From: an uncultured Spirochaetota bacterium
Lineage (GTDB): Bacteria; Spirochaetota; Spirochaetia; SZUA-6; Fen-1364
DNA length: 64,000 nucleotides
Assembly: GCA_963734545.1 (NCBI GenBank)
Contig: CAVTHO010000009.1
Coordinates: forward strand, 160,001-224,000
Direction of reading: 5' to 3'
Of the stretch, positions 13,098-25,549 are shown in pieces. The notes under the pieces were generated by a model that was given only the letters and a program-made list of their open reading frames with translations, had not been told where the DNA came from and searched no databases. Numbering within the stretch: position 1 is the stretch's first letter; each line of letters starts with the position of its first letter. Both the position numbers and the translations under genes were made by a program.

Positions 13098-14727
13098 ATG
13101 GTGCACAGCATCGCCATCGCCGATGTCCCCTCCACCACACCCCTGTTCGCCGATTTCTGGAAAGGAAAGGAAACCTTTCGCGGCCTTCTTCCCCGGCATT
13201 TCATGGATCCGCGCGCCTTCTCGGAGCAGGCCGGCCTGCTTGCCCGCGCCCGCTACGACCGCGGCACGCTGTGCACGGTGCTCCGCGAGCAGAACGAAAG
13301 GTTCGGCGCGGGCGCACAGACGCTGCGGTCCATCGACGCGCTGGAGGGGCCCGGCTCCATGGTCGTGATCGGAGGTCAGCAGGCCGGGTTGTTCGGCGGC
13401 CCCCTCTACACGGTGCACAAGGCCCTGACGATCATCGTGCTCGCCCGCAGGATGGCGAAACAACTGCGACCGGCCGGTGATCCCCGTGTTCTGGATCGCC
13501 TCCGAGGACAGCGATCTCGCGGAGGTGAATCACACCTTCGTTGTCGACAGGGACGGTCGGCTGCGGGAGCTTCGTCTGCACGAAGCGGTGGAAGCGAAGC
13601 TTCCGGTCTCCCGTGTGCGCCTCGGGGAGGAGATCGGGCCGCTCATGAACGAGCTGGCCGCCGCGCTTCCCGAGGCAGATGGCGCGGAGAATGTACTCGC
13701 CGACCTGCGGGCGGCGTACGCCCCCGGCCGCACCTATCCGCAGGCCTTCGGCTCCTGGATGACGAATCTCTTCGGCGAGCAGGGACTGGTGCTCGTCGAT
13801 CCTTCCGATGTCCGGCTGAAACGGATGGCGCATTCGCTTTTCGAGCGCGAGATCAGGGAGAACAGCCCGGTGAGCGCCGCGGTCATCGCGCAGACCCGCC
13901 GGATGATCGAGGCGGGATACGCGCCGCAGATCGAGCTGCGGGAAGGGTTCCTCACTCTTTTCCACCAGGACCCTGCCCGGCAGGCCATCGCGCTCCGCAG
14001 GAACGGATTCGAGCTGAAGTCGACCGGGAAGACCTTTACAGCGGAGGAGCTCGCCGGTCTCCTGGAGCGCAGCCCGGAGAGCTTCACTCCCAACGCGGTG
14101 CTGCGTCCCCTGTACCAGGACACGCTCTTTCCCACGCTGGCTGCGGTCCTCGGTCCATCGGAGATCGCCTACTTCTCACAGCTCACGCTGGCCTATGAGC
14201 GGATGGGCATCCCGATGCCGATCGTTTTTCCCCGCTCCTCCCTCACCCTGGTGGAACCGAAAATGGAGAAGCTCATGGCCAGGCTCGGCGTGGGCCTGAG
14301 GGACCTCCTCGTGCGCGGGGAACGAATAATCGACGACATATTGAAGAGAGACATTCCCGAGTCCCTCACCACGCGGGTCATGGAGGGCAGGGCCTCTGTG
14401 ACGGCAGCCTGGAAAACGATCATCGGCGAGATCGACACGCTTGATCCCACGCTGCATCGGACGGCGGAACTGGGATCAGGCAGGGCCCTGCGCCAGTTCG
14501 ATTTCATGGAAAAGAAGATCGCGCAGGCAGCCCGGAAAAAGAACGGGATCCTCCGCGGGCAGGTGGAGAGGCTCGTCGCCGCCCTGGCGCCCAGGAACGG
14601 CCTGCAGGAGAGGACGCTCACGGCGCTCCCCTTTCTTGCGCGCTACGGAAAACAGATTCTCACCCAGGCAGCGGAAGGCATCGATCCGTTCGCCCCCGAG
14701 CACAGGGGGCTGGTGGTGGATCAATGA
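13098..14727 (+). CDS. bshC: Bacillithiol cysteine-adding enzyme (frameshift ~13470)
   Basis: GGQQAGLFGGPLYTVHKA, PVFWIASEDSD, PNAVLRPLYQD, GPSEIAY, LQER. Confidence 0.9.
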
Positions 14728-15446
14728 CGCTGGACATACTGGCATTCGGCGCGCATCCGGATGACGTGGAGCTGGCCGCGAGCGGTACCCTGATCAAGGC
14801 GGGACGCGGCGGCGCGAAAACGGGCGTGATCACCCTCACCCGCGGAGAGATGGGCACGCGCGGCACTCCCGCCGCGCGGGCGGCTGAGTTCGAGGCGGCA
14901 GGTGACGCGATGGGTCTCACTCATCGGGAAATGCTCTCCCTGCCGGACGGCAGGCTGGCCCCGGACCAGGGGGCAAAGGAAGCCGTGGTTCGGGAGATCA
15001 GGGAGCATCGGCCGCGCATCGTCCTTCTGCCCTATTGGGAGGACAGGCATCCCGATCACGGCGCCGCTTCACGCATCATCCAGGAGGCGGCATTCCTGGC
15101 GGGACTTCGCAAGCTGGAAACCGGCCAGGAGCCGCACCGCCCGTCCGAGCTTGTCTACTACATGGCCAGCTGGGAGTTCGAGCCGAGCTTTATCGTCGAT
15201 ATCAGCGACGTGATCGAGGACAAGATCAAGGCGATCCAGGCATACGGCACGCAAGTGCACAATCCGGGCTACGCGGGGAACGAGCCGCCCACCTTCATCT
15301 CCAGCCAGCACTTCCAGGAGCTGCTCATGACCCGCATGGCCCACTACGGACACCTCATCGGAAAGAAGTACGGGGAGCCCTTCCGCATCAAGGGTCTGAT
15401 CGAGGTGAAAGACCTGCTGGAGTCTTTCGGAAGCCGGACGTTTTAG
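14724..15446 (+). CDS. bshB1: Bacillithiol biosynthesis deacetylase
   Basis: LDILAFGAHPDDVEL, LTRGEMGTRGT, DRHPDH; overlaps the bshC stop. Confidence 0.9.
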   Translation: MTLDILAFGAHPDDVELAASGTLIKAGRGGAKTGVITLTRGEMGTRGTPAARAAEFEAAGDAMGLTHREMLSLPDGRLAPDQGAKEAVVREIREHRPRIVLLPYWEDRHPDHGAASRIIQEAAFLAGLRKLETGQEPHRPSELVYYMASWEFEPSFIVDISDVIEDKIKAIQAYGTQVHNPGYAGNEPPTFISSQHFQELLMTRMAHYGHLIGKKYGEPFRIKGLIEVKDLLESFGSRTF

Positions 15447-15733: not shown

Positions 15734-18634
15734 CTAATGGCCCGTTGGCCCTGAAGGCTTATCTGCGCCTTGCTTCAGAATGATGGTCGCACCCCCTGGC
15801 ACACCCGACGTCTGCTTTAATTCGATGGAAGCGCCGTTTTCTAGAATCTTGATTACCCTCTGCTCCTGGACCACGCGGAACTCAACCGACCGGCTTTCTC
15901 CTCCCGTGAGCGCGAGATCGAAAGACTCGGGCTCAATTCTATGGTAGCTCGGAAGCTGTCCCCCTGCGATACGAAGCACATAGTTTCCCGGTCGCACATC
16001 CTGGAAGCTGAAATCCCCATTGGGGCTCGTCAGCTTTCGCCGAATCTCGGCACCGTTGGCTATTTCGATGATCACGTTTCCGAGGCCCCCGAGTCGTGCG
16101 CGATTGGTTTCCCCTGATTCTGCGCCCGATCCTTTCTGATCCAACGGAAGGTAGGCGCCGGCCTCGTCCGGGAACCCGTACACGCCGACGTTCCCCGTGA
16201 CCGAGCAACTCTTGATCATCCCTATGGCGAGGGAAATCGTCGACCCGCTCGGTGCCGTCACCGCCAGAGGCATCGGTTCCACTGGCACCATACCGGGTCT
16301 TACGGTCGCCAAATCCACGTGGACGTACTTGGTTCCCGATTGGGGAAGGTAGAACGTGAACCGTCCCTTCGCATCGCTGAGCGCCGCAAGGCCGTCCAGA
16401 CGGAGCAGGACCCCTGGCATGGGCTCATCAGTCGAGGCGTTGTACACGCGACCCGTTACAGTTGCCGTATCCGGCTTTCGGCTGATCGGCAGATCGAATG
16501 GCACCCCATAAGTGAGTTGCAGAGAATAATAGGGCGTCCAGGACTCCGGATCATAGGTGAGTCCGACATCAAGCTGCGCCGTGAGAGTAGTGCCCCATGA
16601 GAAGGCAGTCGTGAGTTTGGCTCCGACGGACGCCAGAAGCTCGGTGAAACCCGCCTGGCTGAAAATGTAGCTGTTGCCGGCCTTTGCTTCCAGCTGGGTT
16701 TTCGCTTTCGAGTATCGAGCGTCCACCTGCCAGCCCGCAACATGTGAAGCATTCCCGTTTGAATCCAGCCTGCCGTTGTAGAGGAGCGAAGCGGCATACC
16801 ATGCCGTATCGGCTGGTTGAAACTCGAAAGAGAGGTTGTGCTGTTGCTCCAGGGACGAAACCCCATTTGCTTTATCGAACTCGAAGCCTGCCGAGGACGC
16901 AAGGCCGATGGCGAACGGCTTGAGGGGCTGGCGCAGCGAGAGTCGGAAGATGTTTTGCCAGGAGTCATATCTCGGCGCGGGAAGCCTGTCTATGCGTCGC
17001 CAGTTTTCCCAGTCCAGCCTGAGCCGCATGCCCCACCGTGGTATTTCTCCCTCCGCGCCCAGAGAGATCTCCATGGTCCGATCTGCCGACAGTTGCGCAG
17101 GATCAAGGAGCAGGTTGGCATCAGCCATCGAGAAGCCGCCGTGCAGGGTGAGGAAGGGGGGCAGGACGCGCACGTGGACGAGCGTACGCAGGGATTGTGT
17201 GTCGCTGAACGTTCCCTGAAAACCAGGCCATGCCCTGACGAATCGCGCGGTCCAGGAAACAGGTTCGAGATTGCCCTGGGACCATGCAAAGACCGCCGGG
17301 CGGAGGCTGCCGGAAGTATCGTCCTGGATCGCCGTGTCAAGCTGAAACTGGAGGTTCTCCGTCGGATTGTATTGCTGCATCAGGCCGAAGGAAATGCTGT
17401 CCGTAATCGGCGAGAAGGCGCTCAGCCCCGCGCGGTACACCACGTCGTCCCATTGCCCCGATCGGGGAATCGTGAAGTCAGCGGTCCCGCCTATCGCCTG
17501 CGCCCCCTGCGGCGACCAGACGTCCTTGTAGTACAGGCCGCCGAAACGAAACGGGGAGAGGTTCACCATGCCCCGGATTCCCCGGCCGAACACGTCCTCA
17601 GCGAGCAGCGGAGAGATCGCGTAGGGGAGATCCCCCAGCCCCAGCTCGCCGTAGCGACTCTCGTACTGGAAGCTGTAGCGGTCCGTCGGATTGAAGAGCG
17701 GATCAAAAGTGGTGTCGACCCGTTTGCGAAGCTCCAGATCGACTCTGTGCTCGCCGGCCTCGTCTATGGTGCCATGAGCTTTCACGGATTCCTCGAGACC
17801 CGCGGTCAGCTTCTGGTCATAGCCGCTTAAAATTGTCGTCTCGGTGAAAAACGGCACCGCGTGCGAGAGGATCCTGGCGTCGACCGAAAGTGGGACGACC
17901 TCGACAGAGCTTGCGGCAATTGCCAGCGGTGCGCCTGGTCCCGTGGCTCCAGCTTCCTCAGCCGGATGTAGGCGCACGGTGACCTGGAGGGGGTGGAGCA
18001 CAGACGTGACCAGCAGCGGGTCCGTACGCACCGCGATGCTGAACACTTTTACATCACCGGCAGGCACGATCGTCCCCGCCGCGCCCCCAAGACCGCTGAT
18101 CTTGAACGGGAACAGGGACCCGCTCGTCACGTCAACCTCGACCTCAACGTCCGTGTTCCCGGTGTTGGAAATAACAAAGGATGTCGTGTATTCCTTGCCG
18201 GCAATCACGAAAGAGGGGCGTTCCAGGAGCTTCAAATCGAGGGCAACCTCGGGCAGGACACGTACTTTGAGGTCGCACCCCGCGCTGAGCGTCGGGTCGT
18301 CGAGGTCTTTCACCCGGTACGCAACGACGTACTCTGCGGCGGCGGCACGAGACGGAACGAGGAAAGAGACCACGTGAAGGTCGGTCGCCGAAGGCGCCAG
18401 GACGAACGGTCCCTCCTGCGTGAGCGCCTTCCAGCCGGGAGGAAGCGAAGGCTCGAGAATCAGCGTGCGGGCCTGCGGGCCGCTGTTTGATACGGACAGC
18501 GCGAAGGTGACTGCCTGCCGGGTATGAACCTCGAGAAGATCCACCCCTGTCGTCCTCACGGTGACCGGCAGATTCTCCGCACCGGCCGTGGTTGCGACTG
18601 CCAGCAGGAGAATCGGGATAAGGCGGCGGAGCAC
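15734..18634 (-). CDS. Large exported usher-like protein (N-terminal Ig-like repeats, central beta-rich region, C-terminal beta-sandwich repeats)
   Basis: Signal peptide; VSNSG/ISNTGN Ig-like repeats; GELGLGD; amphipathic beta strands; TVTGRVY..SDAKGRFTF and TSPNGDFSFQDVRPGNY repeats. Confidence 0.65.
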   Translation of the reverse strand: MLRRLIPILLLAVATTAGAENLPVTVRTTGVDLLEVHTRQAVTFALSVSNSGPQARTLILEPSLPPGWKALTQEGPFVLAPSATDLHVVSFLVPSRAAAAEYVVAYRVKDLDDPTLSAGCDLKVRVLPEVALDLKLLERPSFVIAGKEYTTSFVISNTGNTDVEVEVDVTSGSLFPFKISGLGGAAGTIVPAGDVKVFSIAVRTDPLLVTSVLHPLQVTVRLHPAEEAGATGPGAPLAIAASSVEVVPLSVDARILSHAVPFFTETTILSGYDQKLTAGLEESVKAHGTIDEAGEHRVDLELRKRVDTTFDPLFNPTDRYSFQYESRYGELGLGDLPYAISPLLAEDVFGRGIRGMVNLSPFRFGGLYYKDVWSPQGAQAIGGTADFTIPRSGQWDDVVYRAGLSAFSPITDSISFGLMQQYNPTENLQFQLDTAIQDDTSGSLRPAVFAWSQGNLEPVSWTARFVRAWPGFQGTFSDTQSLRTLVHVRVLPPFLTLHGGFSMADANLLLDPAQLSADRTMEISLGAEGEIPRWGMRLRLDWENWRRIDRLPAPRYDSWQNIFRLSLRQPLKPFAIGLASSAGFEFDKANGVSSLEQQHNLSFEFQPADTAWYAASLLYNGRLDSNGNASHVAGWQVDARYSKAKTQLEAKAGNSYIFSQAGFTELLASVGAKLTTAFSWGTTLTAQLDVGLTYDPESWTPYYSLQLTYGVPFDLPISRKPDTATVTGRVYNASTDEPMPGVLLRLDGLAALSDAKGRFTFYLPQSGTKYVHVDLATVRPGMVPVEPMPLAVTAPSGSTISLAIGMIKSCSVTGNVGVYGFPDEAGAYLPLDQKGSGAESGETNRARLGGLGNVIIEIANGAEIRRKLTSPNGDFSFQDVRPGNYVLRIAGGQLPSYHRIEPESFDLALTGGESRSVEFRVVQEQRVIKILENGASIELKQTSGVPGGATIILKQGADKPSGPTGH

Positions 18635-18635
18635 C

Positions 18636-19460
18636 TTACTGCTTGAGCACGAGGGTAACGTTGGCGCCGAATACATCCTCGTCCCCGCAATCGACGACGA
18701 TCAGGGCTTTGTAGGAAGGATCCTGGACACCGATCAGATCCACCGTGAACCGCACCGAGGTCCCCGGATACATCCTCTGTTTCCCGCCGTCGAACTTGCC
18801 GACTTTGGTCCCCCTGGAATCGTAGAGCTCGGCCCACAGAGTGCCGCGCAGCCATCGCTCACCCGTGTTTTGCACGTCGACGAGGAGTAGTCTCTTTTCT
18901 TTTTCGCTGACCAGACTGATCTGGCTGAACTTCAAGAGCCGGGTGCCGGTGGCACCTATGTGGGTCACGATCTGGACCGCGTAGCGCAGCACCTGGCTCA
19001 CCCCCACGCCGGTGTTCTTCGGCCCGGGCTGGCTGGACTCCGCGGACCCTTCCGGGACGGGCTCCACCATGACAACGCTCCAATAGGTCCCGGCCAGCGT
19101 TGCATCATTCGGCACCTGGACGCTGAAGTGCAGCGACACGGTCTCATTCGGCGGGATCGTAACCTGCTGGGGAGACAGCGTCATCCAGCGGGCATTGGAC
19201 CTCGGGAGCGCGCCGGGATCTCCGTAGAGCACCTTCCCATCCGCATAAAAGAAATAGTCGGTCTGGTAGGTCTTGATCTCCTGCGGCGTTTTCTCGGGAT
19301 TCTTTACATCGATGGAGCCTTCATAGGTGCGTCCCGGCGCCACCTCGTACTCACGAGTGAGCGATCCTGTAACGATGATCCCCGCGTAACACGCAAGCGG
19401 CGCAGCGAGCAAACCAACCATGACGGCAACGATGCGAACGTTCATATTCCTCCGGCTCAT
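18636..19460 (-). CDS. Exported pilus-chaperone-like protein (PapD/DUF916-like, two Ig domains)
   Basis: Signal peptide; WMTLSPQQVTIPPNET, YWSVVMVEP, LRYAVQIVT, DVQNTGERW. Confidence 0.7.
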   Translation of the reverse strand: MSRRNMNVRIVAVMVGLLAAPLACYAGIIVTGSLTREYEVAPGRTYEGSIDVKNPEKTPQEIKTYQTDYFFYADGKVLYGDPGALPRSNARWMTLSPQQVTIPPNETVSLHFSVQVPNDATLAGTYWSVVMVEPVPEGSAESSQPGPKNTGVGVSQVLRYAVQIVTHIGATGTRLLKFSQISLVSEKEKRLLLVDVQNTGERWLRGTLWAELYDSRGTKVGKFDGGKQRMYPGTSVRFTVDLIGVQDPSYKALIVVDCGDEDVFGANVTLVLKQ

Positions 19461-19463
19461 CTG

Positions 19464-20009
19464 TCAGAACTCCGTCACGGTGTACGTGACGCTCGTTACA
19501 TCGCTGGGCGTCACCAGATTGGGAGCAGACACGCCACGAATCTGAAGCTGGCATCGGATGTTTCTCACTGCTGTTCGGGTGTTGCAGCGGAAAAGCTCCG
19601 TGGGGACGTTCGTGACCTGCTGATAGACATTCAAGGGTCCGACGAGGTTGCCCGCGGGGGTGCCATTGTTGGTACGCCGGATCCACAATTGCAGGTTGGC
19701 GCCCCAGGTGGCGGTATAGGTCCTGCTGACAGTGACTACCCACCCCGTCATCCCGCCCGTGAATGGAGCGTTCACTCGCAAAACAGTCTGGTTGGCCGCA
19801 CTGGTGTAGGTGGTTGTGGTAAAATCTCTTCCCGCTGCCGGAACCGGTGAGGGCGCGGCCGGGATGGTGACCGTCCAACCGCCGGCGCCGGTCGAGATCA
19901 CCAAGGCCAGCGGGACGGCGGGCTCTGCGACAACAAGCAAAAACAGCAGATTGAGAACTAGGCTCCCCGCTCGAACCGGCTGTGGAAGGGATGAAAAAAA
20001 ATCGCGCAT
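19464..20009 (-). CDS. Minor pilin-like exported protein
   Basis: Signal-like N-terminus, Thr/Gly-rich beta content, Cys pair, C-terminal VTYTVTEF strand. Confidence 0.6.
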   Translation of the reverse strand: MRDFFSSLPQPVRAGSLVLNLLFLLVVAEPAVPLALVISTGAGGWTVTIPAAPSPVPAAGRDFTTTTYTSAANQTVLRVNAPFTGGMTGWVVTVSRTYTATWGANLQLWIRRTNNGTPAGNLVGPLNVYQQVTNVPTELFRCNTRTAVRNIRCQLQIRGVSAPNLVTPSDVTSVTYTVTEF

Positions 20010-20011
20010 GC

Positions 20012-20068
20012 GAAAAAAAACGGAGAGGGCCGGATCGAGGCATTACGCCTCTCCACTAGCCCTTCCGT
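20012..20068 (-). terminator. Intrinsic terminator-like structure after the major pilin-like gene
   Basis: GGAGAGG...CCTCTCC stem followed by G and a U8 tract on the minus strand. Confidence 0.55.
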
Positions 20069-20084
20069 CCTTTCAGTGGTCGGC

Positions 20085-20624
20085 CTAGCTGGCGTCGGTC
20101 AATGTGAAGGTCACGGTGACCAGGTGGTTGTCGCCCACAGCGAGGTTCGCGACAGTATCCACTTGCAAGGTGTACGTCAGCTGCGCTCCATTGGCAGCCT
20201 GGCCGGTGACGCAGCTCGGAATCGCCGTGACGATGTTCAGCGCAGCCGCGCCAATCGTGACAGCTGCACCCGCAGTCCCGCAACCGCCGGTGACCGAGGT
20301 CGCCTGCACGTGCAGAGAGGTGCCGGCAGGCGCGGCATCAGCGCCACCCCACTGCACGGAAATGTTCCTGTTGGTTCCGGTGGCATTTACCGTGGTATAC
20401 CACAGATATTTGCTGTTGTCCGTTTGGCCGACAGGGGCCAGTCCTCCTGCTGCCGGAGCCTGCACGCTCAAAGTGACCGTGGCAACGTTGTTAAGGCTCA
20501 TCATGACGATTTCAGGCACATTCAGCTGAACCGAATGGGCTGCCGAGCTGGTTGCGGCAAACGCGCCGGCACCTACAAACAGACAAAGAGCGGCAATTAA
20601 TAGAGTTTTTCTAATGAAGTTCAT
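20085..20624 (-). CDS. Major pilin-like exported protein
   Basis: Sec signal ending AFA, alternating N-terminal strand AAHSVQLNVPEI, Cys pair, C-terminal VTVTFTLTD; AAGGAGG RBS. Confidence 0.7.
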   Translation of the reverse strand: MNFIRKTLLIAALCLFVGAGAFAATSSAAHSVQLNVPEIVMMSLNNVATVTLSVQAPAAGGLAPVGQTDNSKYLWYTTVNATGTNRNISVQWGGADAAPAGTSLHVQATSVTGGCGTAGAAVTIGAAALNIVTAIPSCVTGQAANGAQLTYTLQVDTVANLAVGDNHLVTVTFTLTDAS

Positions 20625-20740
20625 TTTTCGTCCTCCTTGCTTCTCAGAACCGGAACGCGTGTTCGCTCACCCGGCCTCTACAAGGAGTATAGTCTCCGCT
20701 TTCGCGTAATTCCAGAAAAAGCCCTGCTATTTTCGCCTAT

Positions 20741-21165: not shown

Positions 21166-22523
21166 CTACAGAGCGGCACCGTTTGAGGCGATCACCCTCT
21201 GATACCAGTTTGCGCTCTTTTTCCACGTGCGCGCCTGCGTATGAAAGTCGACGTGGGTAATCCCGAACCGTTTGCTGAACCCGTACGCCCATTCGAAGTT
21301 GTCCATCAGCGTCCAGAGAAAGTAGCCTTCCAGCCTCACCCCGTCATTGATGGCCCGGTGGGCCTCGGAAAGGTGGGTGGATATGTAGTCGATCCTGTCG
21401 TCGTCCTGCACCTGCCCATCCACGACCAGATGGTCAGGAAAGGCAGCTCCGTTCTCCGTGATGACAATGACCGGGTCGTCATACTCCTTCTTCACCTGCA
21501 TGAGGATATCGTACAGCCCTTCCGGAAACACCTCCCAGCCCATCTCCGTCCGCTCGCACTCTTTTCGGAGCGCATGTTGGTACCCGAGGAAGCCTCCCGC
21601 GTCGCTCGCGTACACCCTTTCGGGGAAGTAGTAGTTCAGGCCGATGAAATCAACGGGGTTCGTTTTCAACAGCTCGAAGTCCTGCCGCTCCGTGTGAGGA
21701 GCCACTTTGTTCCTGGTATACAGGCTCAAGATGTCGTCTGGATACGAGCCCTTCAGGACAGGGTCCAGAAACCAGCGATTGGTCTTGCCGTCCGCGAGCC
21801 GGGCCGCCTCGATGTCCGACACACCGTCGGTGAATGGATAGACCGGGTGAACGTCCAGGGCGATGCCGATCCGGTGCTTGCCGGGACTCAGCTGCCGATA
21901 GGCCTGTACGCCGAGGGAATGCGCGTGCAGGAGGATGTGCGACGCCTGCACCGCCGCGCCGAAGTCCTTCAGCCCCGGCGCATGGATTCCCATCTGCATG
22001 ACCGGCGAACGAGGACACCTGGGGCTCGTTGAGCGTCATCCAGATTTTCACCCGGTCACCGAGCCGCATGAAGACCGATGCGGCATAGTCGGCAAACCAG
22101 CTTGCCGTGTCCCGATTGGTCCAGCCTCCCCTGTCCTGAAGTGACTGCGGCAAGTCCCAGTGATACAGGGTGGCGGCAGGTTCGATACGCGCCTCCAGCA
22201 GCGCGTCCACGAGGGTCTCGTAGAAATCCAATCCTCTTGGATTGTGCCTTCCGTTTCCCATCGGAAACACGCGCGGCCAGGAAATGGAGAACCGGTAGGA
22301 CGCCGAGCCCGAGGTCCCGCATGTTCTCGATGTCGTCCCGCCACCTGTGGTAGTGATCGCAGGCAAGGACCCCGGTCTCCCCGGTCTCGATGGCGCCGGG
22401 CACCTGGCAGAAGCGGTCCCAGATCGACTCGCCCTTTCCATTCTCCCGTGCGGCGCCCTCGATCTGGTAGGCGGCAGTGGCTGCTCCCCAGAGAAACCCC
22501 GTCGGAAAACCGCTTGAAGGCAT
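21166..22523 (-). CDS. GH1 beta-glucosidase (frameshifts ~22300, ~22000)
   Basis: [38 protein letters not shown]. Confidence 0.92.
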
Positions 22524-22529
22524 GGATTC

Positions 22530-22558
22530 ATTATAGAAACGGCAGTCCGAGGTGTCAA
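22530..22558 (-). promoter_or_regulatory. Consensus sigma70 promoter of the GH1 gene (leaderless)
   Basis: TTGACA-17nt-TATAAT, 6 nt before ATG. Confidence 0.85.
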
Positions 22559-22662
22559 ACAACACTCCGGATTGCGGTGGACCATGCATATCATTAAACC
22601 GGTTTGACCGGGAGAGCATCCTTCCGTATCTTAGATTCAAAAGATATTCTTCCGGAGCAAAC

Positions 22663-25228
<2,566 letters not shown>

Positions 25229-25242
<14 letters not shown>

Positions 25243-25549
25243 GCGGCCGGTCCAGCCTCCGGACCGCCGCTGCTGCCTCGAGGGGAACCTGGAAGACCTT
25301 GTGCGGCGATGCTCCGCCGAGCTTCAACACCACGCTGCCCGGCGGAACGCCGAGGGCTTTTGCCAGGACCCTCGCGACCTCTCCATTCGCCCTGCCCTTT
25401 TCGGCAACCGCCCGGACCGAGACGTGGAGCTCCGCGCCGCGGACGCCGAGAACAGAGTCCTGCCGCGCCCCCGGCTTCGCCTTGACCTTCAGGGTCACGA
25501 AATCGGCGTGAATTGAATAGAAGCCTCCCGGATCAGCCAACGCGGTCAC
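25229..25549 (-). CDS. DUF167/YggU family protein
   Basis: [19 protein letters not shown]. Confidence 0.85.

Follow-up and report, generated by a model that had tools for sequence, protein, structure and literature searches.

A candidate donor-strand pilus operon with its own putative outer-membrane barrel protein in an uncultured spirochaete

In the Elr and Pam pili, as the preprints describe them, the shaft is built of subunits that act as both strand donors and acceptors, while the tip is an acceptor-only subunit. According to the Elr preprint, the WxLIP protein ElrE donates a strand to the ElrD pilin and resembles CsuC, CfaA, Caf1M and EcpB by Foldseek. Chaperone-usher systems of the archaic type extend to Deinococcus-Thermus, according to PMC4654587. 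The window analysed here, a stretch of 64 kb from an uncultured Spirochaetota bacterium, contains four genes that we read, at a probability of roughly 0.6, as a pilus operon of a two-membrane bacterium, whose thin surface fibre would be assembled by a donor-strand route through a putative barrel protein, U, and with a pilin-chaperone module related to WxLIP-WxL.

Layout of the locus and its recurrence in other genomes

The genes and the elements that may govern their expression are as follows.

20631-20638, minus strand: Shine-Dalgarno-like AAGGAGGA, 6 nt ahead of the pilA ATG (direct sequence reading)
20085-20624, minus strand: pilA, 179 aa, intact ORF
20008-20084, minus strand: terminator- or attenuator-like stem-loop in the pilA-pilB gap, followed by eight consecutive U
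19464-20009, minus strand: pilB, 181 aa, intact ORF
18636-19460, minus strand: chaperone gene, 274 aa, intact ORF
15734-18676, minus strand: U gene, 980 aa with the first ATG as start, or 966 aa with a GTG start at 18634

The original prediction of four co-oriented, frameshift-free genes with signal-peptide-like N-termini agrees with these four intact minus-strand reading frames, each of which opens with a charged stretch that gives way to a hydrophobic one (judged by eye for all four proteins). The strings VTVTFTLTD, VTYTVTEF and AAHSVQLNVPEI quoted at that time are each found in the translations, and the length of ~966 aa given for the fourth protein corresponds to the GTG start, which lies 1 base past the chaperone stop codon; the ATG start at 18676 creates a 41-nt overlap with the chaperone gene. 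The gaps between pilA and pilB and between pilB and the chaperone gene are 75 nt and 3 nt, respectively, and no extra copies of pilA, pilB, the chaperone gene or U occur within the window. Homologues are numerous: the chaperone has 580 at E≤1e-3 among 2224 candidates, a chaperone profile search of a 1.84-billion-protein library returned 6004 representatives at E≤1e-3 (735 at E≤1e-30), and the best E values reach 1e-277 for U and 1e-52 for pilA. The genes are therefore real rather than chance reading frames of DNA with a G+C content of 62%.

The stem-loop between pilA and pilB has a folding energy of -33.9 kcal/mol (z = -3.74), with 1 of 200 shuffles as stable; it was absent from the output of a simple terminator scan. 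A strong ribosome-binding site precedes pilA and a terminator-like hairpin comes after it, and the genes for pilB, the chaperone and U are closely coupled. Such a layout is typical of fimbrial operons, and for this reason it was counted in favour of the pilus reading. In related loci, 'a' genes are followed by a hairpin with a T-run in just 17 of 97 intergenic gaps, a scarcity that counts against that reading; the corresponding figures are 0 of 52 for 'b' genes and 1 of 71 for chaperone genes.

Chaperone relatives were present in 473 of 573 candidate stretches from a species-genome collection, and the locus counts that follow rest on the 79 loci fetched. A U homologue lies directly after the chaperone gene in 77 of these; of the two others, L050 stops at a contig edge and L033 has 2.2 kb downstream and no U. 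Pilin-like genes are present in 73 of 79, and the usual order is one or more pilins, a pilin lacking the N-terminal strand, the chaperone and the barrel protein. Where 3 kb or more of upstream sequence was available (57 operons), 1 to 7 'a' genes are present in 55, and a 'b'-type gene immediately precedes the chaperone gene in 42, with 8 more recognised by eye. The only other neighbours conserved across the 79 loci are antisense shadow ORFs inside the operon genes and signalling genes (27/79). Co-occurrence of the four genes elsewhere had been set beforehand as one of the tests on which the prediction would stand or fall, and the genes do co-occur, with their order kept in many genomes. The four-gene set recurs in many bacterial phyla; similar clusters, mentioned earlier for Bacteroidota, were located there and in Ignavibacteriota, and the system is found on Deinococcus plasmids too. 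It is best read as a widespread system that has not been annotated so far.

The chaperone-like protein and its candidate relatives

The third protein had been described as a 274-aa two-domain protein with chaperone-like motifs, a description that fits a soluble protein comprising a signal peptide, an N-terminal Ig-like domain (~27-170) and a C-terminal Ig-like domain (~171-274), with no membrane anchor, and whose top family leads are reported donor-strand chaperones. Across the family, 267 of 269 proteins have no hydrophobic segment beyond residue 60. Pfam WxLIP_PGBD matches residues 39-121 (E 3e-4, under the cut-off), and at E≤0.1 it is found in 45 of 66 family members, at ~residues 37-124, with WxLIP_HBD in 4 of 66. 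The highest-scoring PGBD match reaches 22.4 bits (curated cut-off 27.3) and the highest-scoring HBD match 21.7 bits (cut-off 28.9). In the Atlas, a homologue with 61% identity has structural neighbours that include clusters with PF06030 in 22-41% and PF11797 in 14% of members. The N-domain also contains a conserved element that may act in assembly.

18957-19085, minus strand: conserved beta-hairpin of the chaperone N-domain, residues 126-168, candidate donor strand

This hairpin consists of YWSxxMVEP, a loop and a long alternating strand, with R159 and Q163 invariant. Its position matches that of the DUF916 hairpin which, according to the Elr preprint, donates a strand in ElrE (residues 141-152 of ElrE), and by analogy it may give a strand to the pilin. 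On the pilin side, a lead comes from a 54%-identical pilin homologue, whose nearest Pfam-named embedding cluster is WxL (PF13731; score 0.93), with 169 of 256 features shared against a guide value of 170, an agreement that shuffled proteins often reach about as well. Pfam WxL at E≤1 was found in 0 of 54 pilA and 0 of 49 pilB members.

One alternative is a donor-strand pilus whose link to WxL/WxLIP is spurious, a system that either branched off, with great divergence, from the archaic or alternative chaperone-usher pathway and kept a genuine usher homologue, or arose independently out of generic Ig-like domains. Every WxLIP match is sub-threshold and is shared with generic Ig-like families, namely NPCBM_assoc, FixG_C and fn3_5, the last of which matches 52 of 66 chaperone members and is no rarer than WxLIP. 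The name 'P pilus assembly chaperone PapD' is attached by JGI to 2 of the 120 listed chaperone homologues, the occurrence on Deinococcus plasmids agrees with the reach of archaic systems noted above, and the WxLIP chaperones themselves have a fold similar to that of CsuC and EcpB (Elr preprint). Nevertheless, this explanation is unlikely. The N- and C-domain leads correspond to both halves of a single known protein, placed in the correct order, with WxLIP_HBD at residues 154-257 in the member P0145. Moreover, membrane-anchored variants exist, since 2 of the 269 family members have a linker, membrane helix and tail, which is the WxLIP topology. Matches to PapD_N, PapD_C, Usher, Fimbrial and SCPU of Pfam were absent from 66 chaperone, 30 U, 54 pilA and 49 pilB members, and none of the hhalign comparisons with E. 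coli Fim-type profiles was significant: chaperones gave a probability of 6.5%, ushers 19% (E 1.2e-3, in the barrel region of U, a placement that favours the offshoot) and subunits 47% in an alignment covering the signal peptide and N-terminus only. Of the original prediction of a divergent donor-strand system of chaperone-usher type, the donor-strand part is favoured by the conserved operon, the paralogous pilins, the chaperone leads and the barrel-region matches of U, while membership of the chaperone-usher family is not upheld.

Pilin-like proteins and the putative barrel protein U

Two segments of pilA stand out.

20502-20555, minus strand: candidate donor strand of pilA, N-terminal extension, ~residues 24-41, ATSSAAHSVQLNVPEIVM
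20094-20120, minus strand: VTVTFTLTD, the strand at the C-terminus of pilA, where the family is most conserved

The pilA signal peptide spans ~residues 1-23, with cleavage placed by eye after AFA and before A. There are 142 pilA homologues at E≤1e-3, and the 120 listed bear only the name 'hypothetical protein' and no Pfam domain; likewise, the 54 aligned homologues show no consistent Pfam family. The pilB protein (family n=49) is a paralogue of pilA without the N-terminal extension: hhalign of the family profiles gave a probability of 95.6% (E 1.3e-8) over 122 columns from pilA residue 42 and pilB residue 38, a separate comparison of trimmed slices gave only 48%, and an iterated pilA profile recovered 53 of 58 pilB-set ORFs. 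The alternating N-terminal strand noticed originally in the first small protein is indeed extra in pilA and absent in pilB. It falls outside the region that aligns with the pilB family and amounts to ~15 additional residues with conserved alternating hydrophobics (V32 in 45/54, V36 in 44/54, I39 in 41/54); the segment is moderately conserved, with a single position in the top fifth. In pilB and 8 further chaperone-adjacent pilins, the mature chain opens straight at the core strand. In both families conservation peaks at the C-terminal strand, whose mean information content in pilA is 3.11 bits versus 2.17 for the mature protein, with T174 invariant. The Cys pairs reported earlier lie in the mature parts (C115/C138 in pilA, C142/C153 in pilB) but are not family features, being found in 8 of 54 and 1 of 49 members. 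These patterns suggest that pilA is likely the polymerising (major) subunit, its extension serving as a putative donor strand, and that pilB is likely a tip subunit that only accepts a strand.

The protein U, a putative outer-membrane pore for secretion and assembly, divides into three regions.

17891-18577, minus strand: two N-terminal Ig-like domains of U, ~residues 34-262 (NPCBM_assoc, FixG_C and Ig_VWA7 in family members)
16472-17890, minus strand: central amphipathic beta region of U, ~residues 263-735, putative outer-membrane barrel
15797-16471, minus strand: two transthyretin-like domains (CarboxypepD_reg) at the C-terminal end of U, ~residues 736-960

Domain matches at the family level bear out the earlier description, in which Ig-like repeats at the N-terminus are followed by an extended amphipathic beta region and by beta-sandwich repeats at the C-terminus. 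The chaperone N-domain matches the first Ig domain of U at a probability of 93.7% (E 2e-7; 82-86% in separate slice runs). Porin_4 is found at E≤1e-3 in 5 of 30 U members, 3 of them over the curated cut-off, and OMP_b-brl in 2 of 30, while a PDB profile search with U gave weak matches to porin, OmpF and TodX. The centre contains 24 amphipathic segments at thresholds of 1.0-1.6, a count that cannot tell barrel from sandwich and has no specificity, as the soluble parts of U have 5.0-6.2 segments per 100 residues and the centre 5.0. PF13620 matches residues 739-813 (E 2.3e-10) and is listed for each of the 30 members; the two CarboxypepD_reg domains match one another at 97.7%. An additional C-terminal SPOR domain in 2 of 30 members suggests a periplasmic location.

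Porin_4 and CarboxypepD_reg domains are common in porins and typical of receptor-type outer-membrane proteins, so U might instead be an uptake or secretion channel with a 274-aa periplasmic partner, through which the small Thr-rich proteins would be exported as monomeric surface, sheath or substrate-binding proteins. A fibre has been seen for no member of the family, and a large adhesin-like subunit was not found, nor was a donor-only terminator subunit. This explanation without a fibre is, however, distinctly improbable: 1 to 7 tandem paralogues lie ahead of the chaperone gene, a split at a fixed gene position into proteins with and without the N-terminal strand makes no obvious sense for monomers, the top family leads of two components are pilus proteins, and the small proteins have ordinary signal peptides with no conserved lipobox in the pilA or pilB family alignments (by eye). 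A fibre formed without strand exchange, of amyloid or self-donating TasA type, with a chaperone that keeps subunits unfolded and U exporting them as in curli or Fap, is very improbable, for although Thr, Val and alternating strands abound in the pilins, and strand-donation fibres without a chaperone and matrix fibres are known (Elr preprint discussion; paper titles), Pfam reveals no CsgG, CsgE, CsgF or Fap-like component in the operon, the ~470-residue barrel region is much more than an unfolded chain needs, and an Ig-like chaperone with an acceptor-only paralogue suits exchange better.

Proposed assembly and comparison with known pili

In the donor-strand reading that we prefer, Sec would export all four proteins, and the soluble periplasmic chaperone would bind each newly exported pilin, completing its presumably incomplete Ig-like fold with the hairpin strand of the N-domain. 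Chaperone-subunit complexes would be taken up by U through its periplasmic Ig-like and transthyretin-like domains. As an acceptor only, pilB would enter first and become the fibre tip; pilA would then be added singly, each N-terminal strand filling the preceding subunit's groove and driving out the chaperone, and the fibre would exit through the large U barrel. The binding and strand-donation steps, the order in which subunits assemble and their passage through U are each inferred.

The nearest known relatives of these proteins appear to be those of Gram-positive WxL/WxLIP (Elr) pili rather than Pap, Fim or Ecp; chaperone and pilins together most likely form a module distantly related to the WxLIP-WxL (Elr) one of Bacillota. 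The difference between pilA and pilB in the N-terminal strand parallels the shaft/tip split of Elr and Pam pili, as given in the preprints. Unlike Elr of Bacillota, the present system has no membrane anchor or sortase and has an outer-membrane partner instead. It is thus best read as the counterpart, for cells with two membranes, of chaperone-guided donor-strand pili, equipped with its own non-usher barrel and following a route that is probably related to the known pilus pathways yet separate from them.

Operon layout and setting in the window

The reading of the operon with the most support is pilus assembly along the lines of the chaperone-usher pathway, with steps of binding, exchange and export that we infer. 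Within the 64-kb window the operon consists of four genes only, and all of the sequence strings quoted in the original prediction were found in ORFs of the window. The features, with gene coordinates from the ORF list, are as follows.

20085-20624, minus strand: pilA, small pilin-like protein, likely major subunit (179 aa)
19464-20009, minus strand: pilB, small pilin-like protein, likely tip acceptor (181 aa)
18636-19460, minus strand: chaperone-like protein with two Ig-like domains (274 aa)
18681-18701, minus strand: Cys motif D257-C258-G259, in the region of chaperone residues 254-260
15734-18676, minus strand: U, putative outer-membrane barrel protein (980 aa)

Direct reading of the sequence places AAGGAGGA upstream of pilA, six bases from the ATG. 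The 75-nt gap between pilA and pilB contains a stem-loop (-33.9 kcal/mol, z -3.74) followed by eight U, while the spacing from pilB to the chaperone gene is 3 nt. Two starts are available to U: an ATG at 18676, which overlaps the chaperone gene by 41 nt, and a GTG one base past the chaperone stop codon, the latter matching the 966 aa originally predicted for this protein. Inverted repeats of the kind that would mark a fimS-like invertible promoter are absent from the borders of the region upstream of pilA, and no sigma-54 promoter was found there. Elsewhere within the window, searches returned no second copy of any of the four genes, no Rfam family and no tRNA.

The flanking genes are unrelated to the operon and comprise an ABM-like ORF and a GH1 beta-glucosidase gene upstream, and bshB1 and bshC on the other strand downstream. 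The latter two, for bacillithiol biosynthesis (13477-15446), score above NCBIfam cut-offs in an otherwise spirochaetal-looking genome. Neighboring genes are frame-broken at 21166-25511 and 13098-14727: ClpB is present as four overlapping plus-strand pieces in three frames (22552-25511), the beta-glucosidase is split over three frames (21166-22736), and the N-terminal ~115 residues of BshC lie in a different frame from the remainder. These breaks may be assembly errors or pseudogenes; no such break affects the 4.9-kb operon or the other long genes in the window. Third-position G+C is 0.67-0.78 in the four operon genes and 0.76-0.84 in six other window genes, a mild difference.

Protein families, conserved neighborhood and hosts

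Of 2224 candidates in a homology search with the chaperone-like protein, 580 are homologues at E≤1e-3. Identity to it is 48-91% in the best 120, and a source name different from 'hypothetical protein' is attached to just seven of them. The only function-suggesting names among the listed homologues are the JGI label 'P pilus assembly chaperone PapD' (two proteins) and 'peptidoglycan hydrolase-like' (one protein), all within the best 120, and one marginal RefSeq label, 'FimB/Mfa2.' A profile of 66 homologues searched against a library of 1.84 billion proteins recovered 6004 representatives at E≤1e-3, 1918 at 1e-10 and 735 at 1e-30. In NCBIfam none of the four proteins has a family, and Pfam lacks one for the system as well; the Stx1a B-subunit row (E 0.14) that did appear in NCBIfam was taken as chance because the matched residues, 5-29, fall in the signal peptide. 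A PDB profile search with the chaperone gave no matches at E≤10.

Pfam matches to the window chaperone are all sub-threshold, the top two being WxLIP_PGBD and fn3_5. The WxLIP_PGBD match (E 3e-4) aligns residues 39-121 with profile positions 22-109 of 121 and scores 21.2 bits against a gathering cut-off of 27.3, with no HBD match in this protein. Among the 66 family members at E≤0.1, fn3_5 was matched in 52, WxLIP_PGBD in 45 and WxLIP_HBD in four. In 81 further representatives at E≤5e-4, PGBD was matched in six, always at about residues 31-124, and HBD in one, where residues 154-257 align with profile positions 10-118 of 138. No member reaches the gathering cut-off of WxLIP_PGBD (PF06030) or WxLIP_HBD (PF11797), and the domain order and profile coverage of the sub-threshold matches agree with WxLIP. 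Judged by these positions, each half of the chaperone leads, weakly, to the corresponding half of a single known protein.

The family is soluble and has a median length of 270 aa, with no hydrophobic stretch beyond residue 60 in 267 of 269 proteins. The two longer members, P0125 (528 aa) and P0126 (408 aa), extend through a proline-rich linker and a single membrane helix to a cytoplasmic tail, a WxLIP-like topology. Conservation is highest in a YQTD...RSNA...W block and next in a hairpin at residues 126-168, which closes with a long alternating strand and in which R159 and Q163 are invariant. The lone near-invariant Cys of the family, C258 (61/66 rows), lies in a V-D-C-G-G-D-D-V-F-G motif near the C-terminus; metal binding and an intermolecular disulfide are possibilities for its role.

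At E≤1, WxL, SCPU (PF05229) and Fimbrial (PF00419) were matched in 0/54 members of the pilA family and 0/49 of the pilB family, with no consistent Pfam match in either, and single-sequence and profile searches of PDB sequences with both proteins matched no solved structure. The 120 listed of 142 pilA homologues are all named 'hypothetical protein' and have no Pfam domain. The pilA and pilB families are related to each other (hhalign 95.6%, E 1.3e-8, 122 columns; 48% only with trimmed slices and other settings). This alignment starts at pilA residue 42 and pilB residue 38, leaving ~15 residues of pilA after the signal peptide without a pilB counterpart. The segment has the approximate family consensus x-T-A-x-Q-T-V-T-h-x-V-x-A-I, with V32 conserved in 45/54 rows, V36 in 44/54 and I39 in 41/54, and the mature chain of the pilB family opens directly with a core strand, I-x-I-x-V-T-G-x-W. 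Conservation of this N-terminal segment is only moderate, whereas both families are most conserved in the C-terminal strand (VTVTFTLT in pilA). The Cys pairs noted earlier in the two window proteins did not hold up as family features, being present in 8/54 pilA rows and 1/49 pilB rows.

Thirty members of the U family share a plan of two N-terminal Ig-like domains, a central region and two CarboxypepD_reg domains. The Ig-like domains correspond to NPCBM_assoc at ~40-115 and FixG_C or Ig_VWA7 at ~155-235, and CarboxypepD_reg is listed in all 30 members; window U itself has a CarboxypepD_reg match at residues 739-813 (E 2.3e-10) and weak Ig-like matches. Barrel families were matched in the central region of the U family, with Porin_4 at E≤1e-3 in 5/30 members (three above the cut-off) and OMP_b-brl in 2/30, but not in window U, which matched neither at E≤1. 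A PDB profile search with U returned 31 rows, of transthyretin-like domains and weak porin, OmpF and TodX matches only; taken together, single-sequence and profile searches of PDB sequences with the operon proteins brought up no chaperone, pilin or usher. A dyad-hydrophobicity scan of residues 262-740 counted 24 amphipathic segments at thresholds of 1.0 to 1.6; this count was rejected as evidence of a barrel because soluble parts of U have the same density, and it shows only that there is room for a large one. Two of the 30 members carry an added C-terminal SPOR domain. SPOR domains bind peptidoglycan, and the C-terminus of U should therefore be periplasmic. The N-domain of the chaperone matches the first Ig domain of U (93.7%, E 2e-7; 82-86% in slice runs), with chaperone residues 64-83 (~20 residues) lacking a counterpart. 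Conservation in U peaks at residues ~330-370 (17570-17690), in the early part of the central beta region. The family consensus there is approximately G-D-x-x-Y-S-L-S-P-L-T-E-x-x-x-Y-G-R-G, with G348, L357 and G366 invariant, and the stretch may be an in-folded loop or plug-like element.

A scan of a one-genome-per-species collection (185,579 species) found a chaperone relative encoded in 473 of 573 pattern matches, and fetching the best 80 of the 473 relatives gave 79 loci. By tblastn, U adjoins the chaperone gene in 77 of these; one of the other two stops at the chaperone gene (L050), and the second has 2.2 kb of downstream sequence but no U (L033). Direct tblastn detected pilA in 20 loci and pilB in 21, as the small proteins diverge faster, while iterated profiles identified 196 pilin-like ORFs in 73 of the 79 loci; the pilA profile also recovers 53 of the 58 ORFs of the pilB set. 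The common order, on a single strand, is at least one 'a' gene (a pilin with the N-terminal strand), one 'b' gene (the pilB type, without it), the chaperone gene and U, so that the whole is an operon of subunit(s), a periplasmic chaperone and a putative outer-membrane assembly protein. Among 57 operons with at least 3 kb of upstream sequence, 'a' genes number none in two, one in 29, two in 16, three in four, four in three, five in two and seven in one. The 'b' gene is immediately upstream of the chaperone gene in 42 of the 57, and in eight of the other 15 the chaperone-adjacent pilin opens with the core strand, as judged from N-termini read by eye.

A search of the 79 neighborhoods for a sortase, adhesin or terminator subunit revealed no other recurrent gene family beyond signaling genes and antisense ORFs. 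The latter lie antisense to the chaperone gene in 48 loci (18960-19850, plus strand, in the window) and cluster like a conserved family; they were rejected as genes, being shadows of a conserved coding strand in G+C-rich DNA. Signaling genes occur within ~5 kb in 27 of the 79 loci (L010, L014, L016, L018, L020, L031, L055, L056, L061, L062, L067, L068, L077 and others). All five neighboring ORFs of ~455-470 aa that were tested encode NtrC-type sigma-54 response regulators, and the three tested of ~265-270 aa all contain HisKA, the kinase phospho-acceptor domain, with HATPase_c also in two. Seven of 183 pilin genes have the motif TGGCAC-N5-TTGCW in the 250 nt upstream, compared with an expectation of 0.0035 per 250 nt (approximate positions L001:1202, L010:2897, L014:6070, L016:6128, L029:1319 and 2397, and L049:833); in the window there is neither this motif nor a sigma-54 regulator adjoining the operon. 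Two loci are unusual in their gene content. In a Bacteriovoracaceae MAG (L038, 220-14100) a single chaperone gene is surrounded by 14 or more pilin-like genes, with part of a second U gene also present, and a Treponemataceae MAG (L001, 1372-10920) contains two complete, adjacent systems.

The 63 loci with a phylum label represent 16 phyla, including Spirochaetota, Planctomycetota, Ignavibacteriota, Thermodesulfobacteriota, Zixibacteria, Pseudomonadota (Chromatiales), Bdellovibrionota, Bacteroidota and Synergistota. In a FastTree phylogeny of 77 chaperones the window protein is nested in a group of eight Spirochaetota rows (SH-like support 86), in agreement with the probable spirochaete origin proposed from the sequence. 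Two MAGs titled 'uncultured Clostridia bacterium' (L047, L049) contain the operon, barrel protein included, and are either two-membrane Bacillota or bins with misplaced contigs. Cultured carriers include Thiocapsa marina 5811 and Thiohalocapsa marina DSM 19078 (L075 and L042). On plasmid 2 of Deinococcus deserti VCD115 (NC_012529.1, 87735-91583; L081), three adjacent genes are of the pilin, chaperone and barrel types: a 164-aa pilin-like protein (pilA profile E 9e-19), a 256-aa chaperone homologue (31-32% identical) and an 839-aa 'carboxypeptidase regulatory-like domain-containing protein.' A more distant variant on two other Deinococcus plasmids (L086, L087) has a different order, namely a hypothetical protein (291-293 aa), a chaperone-like protein (272-281 aa), a small protein (175-181 aa) and a large protein (1058-1090 aa). 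tblastn of the plasmids with U gave no match at 1e-6.

Proposed assembly pathway and its alternatives

In the proposed pathway, a periplasmic chaperone would keep the subunits by strand complementation, an acceptor-only subunit would start the fiber, strand-donating subunits would lengthen it, and the fiber would leave through a large barrel with periplasmic docking domains. Several of its features are those of the chaperone-usher pathway: an operon plan of subunits, periplasmic chaperone and large outer-membrane protein, with the major subunit gene first and a hairpin after it; a soluble, two-domain, Ig-like chaperone; subunits with an N-terminal extension and a conserved C-terminal strand; and, in U, a putative outer-membrane protein with a large beta region and periplasmic domains on either side.

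A rival of lower probability is that the operon is a very divergent but true chaperone-usher lineage. By every sequence test run, the parts fall outside the chaperone-usher families. Neither PapD_N (PF00345) nor PapD_C (PF02753) was matched in the window chaperone (E≤1) or among the 22 families listed for the 66 members (E≤0.1), and hhalign of the chaperone family gave 6.5% against five E. coli K-12 chaperones and 0.4% against FimC alone. Usher (PF00577) was not matched in window U or the 30 members, no usher is among the 31 PDB rows, and hhalign of the U family gave 19% against five ushers and 1% against FimD. The Fimbrial and SCPU subunit families are, likewise, absent from all 54 pilA and 49 pilB members, and the 47% obtained by hhalign for the pilins against twelve E. 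coli subunits is confined to the signal peptide and N-terminus. An usher has a 24-strand barrel with a plug inside, one N-terminal domain and two C-terminal domains; the flanks of U differ from these terminal domain families, being CARDB/NPCBM-like and transthyretin-like. The chaperone-pilin module seems closer to a soluble form of the WxLIP-WxL module known from Bacillota, and U looks like a separately recruited barrel.

A second rival, that the proteins form an outer-membrane channel complex rather than a fiber, would accommodate the porin-like matches within the U family. The small proteins speak for a fiber: a putative donor strand plus acceptor body in one, beside an acceptor body only in the other, is by analogy the shaft and tip subunit pattern of donor-strand pili, and the available parts of the sources describe the same donor-acceptor logic for Elr pili (bioRxiv 10.64898/2026.10.17.759780) and Pam pili (PMC13278184). 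The weakest rival is a fiber held together without strand exchange.

The reading of chaperone-guided donor-strand assembly can be extended to a joint evolutionary one, to which a probability of about 0.4 is assigned: chaperone-guided donor-strand pili would include a third, ancient branch in two-membrane bacteria, with this operon as its first example. On this account the chaperone-pilin module and the WxL/Elr pili of Bacillota would descend from one ancestor, perhaps together with the Pam pili of CPR bacteria, and the WxL-type module would extend beyond Bacillota. The pore would be no usher homologue but an independently recruited large barrel with chaperone-like Ig and transthyretin-like flanks, and the 'usher' function would have arisen at least twice. 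The membrane-anchored form and the soluble form with a pore would then be two solutions to one assembly chemistry across the divide between one and two membranes.

Donor-strand exchange pili were long held to be chaperone-usher systems of the Proteobacteria type. Two 2026 preprints, in their available parts, extend this chemistry to Gram-positive (WxL/Elr) and CPR (Pam) bacteria, which are without an outer membrane or usher, and the available part of a 2026 review of bacterial surfaces deals with the classical pathway only. Full-text searches of the open literature, several of them loosely aimed, found neither this operon described nor a WxL-like system that has an outer-membrane component or occurs in two-membrane bacteria. 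Since no earlier description was found there and the nearest reports, as far as available, concern bacteria without an outer membrane, the system is taken to be an apparently undescribed variant among known kinds of pilus system, seen in a spirochaete-like genome and widespread. If the reading is true, it offers a candidate adhesion or biofilm fiber for environmental Spirochaetota, Planctomycetota, Ignavibacteriota, Zixibacteria, sulfate reducers, purple sulfur bacteria and Deinococcus, an evolutionary link that joins the Gram-positive route to the Gram-negative one, and another type of assembly pore in the outer membrane for comparison with ushers.

Comparison with type V, WxL/Elr and Pam pili

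A link to the type V pili of Bacteroidota (FimA/Mfa1, with a FimB/Mfa2 anchor) is suggested by RefSeq, in which the chaperone homologue of D. deserti bears the name 'FimB/Mfa2 family fimbrial subunit.' The label traces to a marginal Pfam match to Mfa2, with 21.7 bits against a cut-off of 21.2 over 58 residues of a 277-position profile. The pilins described here differ from those of type V in not being lipoproteins, and, to our knowledge, type V operons contain neither a chaperone nor a barrel protein.

The WxL (Elr) pilus consists of WxL pilins and a DUF916/DUF3324 (WxLIP) chaperone, ElrE (bioRxiv 10.64898/2026.10.17.759780; PMC10599100, each as available in part). According to the available text of the preprint, of October 2026, ElrE of Enterococcus faecalis is a membrane-anchored chaperone; a hairpin strand of its DUF916 domain complements the WxL pilin ElrD, which then polymerizes by donor-strand exchange, and Foldseek matches of ElrE include CsuC, CfaA, Caf1M and EcpB (bioRxiv 10.64898/2026.10.17.759780). 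The chaperone described here is similar in that the best Pfam leads for its N- and C-domains are PGBD and then HBD, in the same order, and, as judged from the same portion of the preprint, in having a conserved hairpin late in the N-domain, at the place of the ElrE donor strand. The ~20 residues without a counterpart in U recall the 20-residue 'buttressing loop' insert that this text describes in PGBD. The small pilins with an N-terminal alternating strand, the acceptor-only subunit and the adjoining pilin and chaperone genes are further points of likeness. Atlas results, which come from stored homologues of the window proteins and hence belong to those homologues, point the same way. The structural neighbor clusters of a model of a 61%-identical chaperone homologue include WxLIP_HBD (14% of members), WxLIP_PGBD (22%) and LysM with WxLIP_PGBD (41%). 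For a 54%-identical pilA homologue, all 30 nearest clusters are unannotated, and the nearest Pfam-named embedding cluster is WxL (PF13731, 75% of members; score 0.93, 169/256 shared features). This embedding link is a lead only; it is independent of the chaperone lead and indicates the same known system.

There are also differences from WxL/Elr pili. A survey at Pfam gathering cut-offs placed the WxL system in Bacillota only, in 48 of 4,698 genera, according to the available part of the preprint (bioRxiv 10.64898/2026.10.17.759780); the WxLIP matches reported here lie below those cut-offs, so the present chaperone family would score beneath the survey as there described. The chaperone is soluble in 267 of 269 proteins, whereas a membrane helix is reported in the same text for 96.7% of WxLIPs, and a C-terminal membrane helix is found here in P0125 and P0126 only. 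Among the gene families that recur in the 79 neighborhoods there is no LPxTG base subunit, sortase or large tip adhesin, whereas a putative outer-membrane protein of ~970 aa is a constant part of the operon, and the hosts are two-membrane bacteria of at least 16 named phyla.

The Pam pili of CPR bacteria are likewise donor-strand fibers with dedicated PapD-like chaperones encoded in the same operon, and their PamT is a single-domain tip pilin without a donated strand, in the available description (PMC13278184). The Atlas neighbors of the chaperone homologue also include a Saccharimonadota cluster, that with LysM and WxLIP_PGBD (41%). Pam chaperones are, however, membrane-anchored and operate with no outer-membrane component, and Pam pilins have two domains and are reported to be exclusive to CPR bacteria; the likeness drawn here is to the published description only, as far as available (PMC13278184). 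Both the Elr and Pam preprints, in the parts available, deal with bacteria that lack an outer membrane, and both describe assembly as usher-free (bioRxiv 10.64898/2026.10.17.759780; PMC13278184). The operon would supply the missing two-membrane counterpart of these systems.
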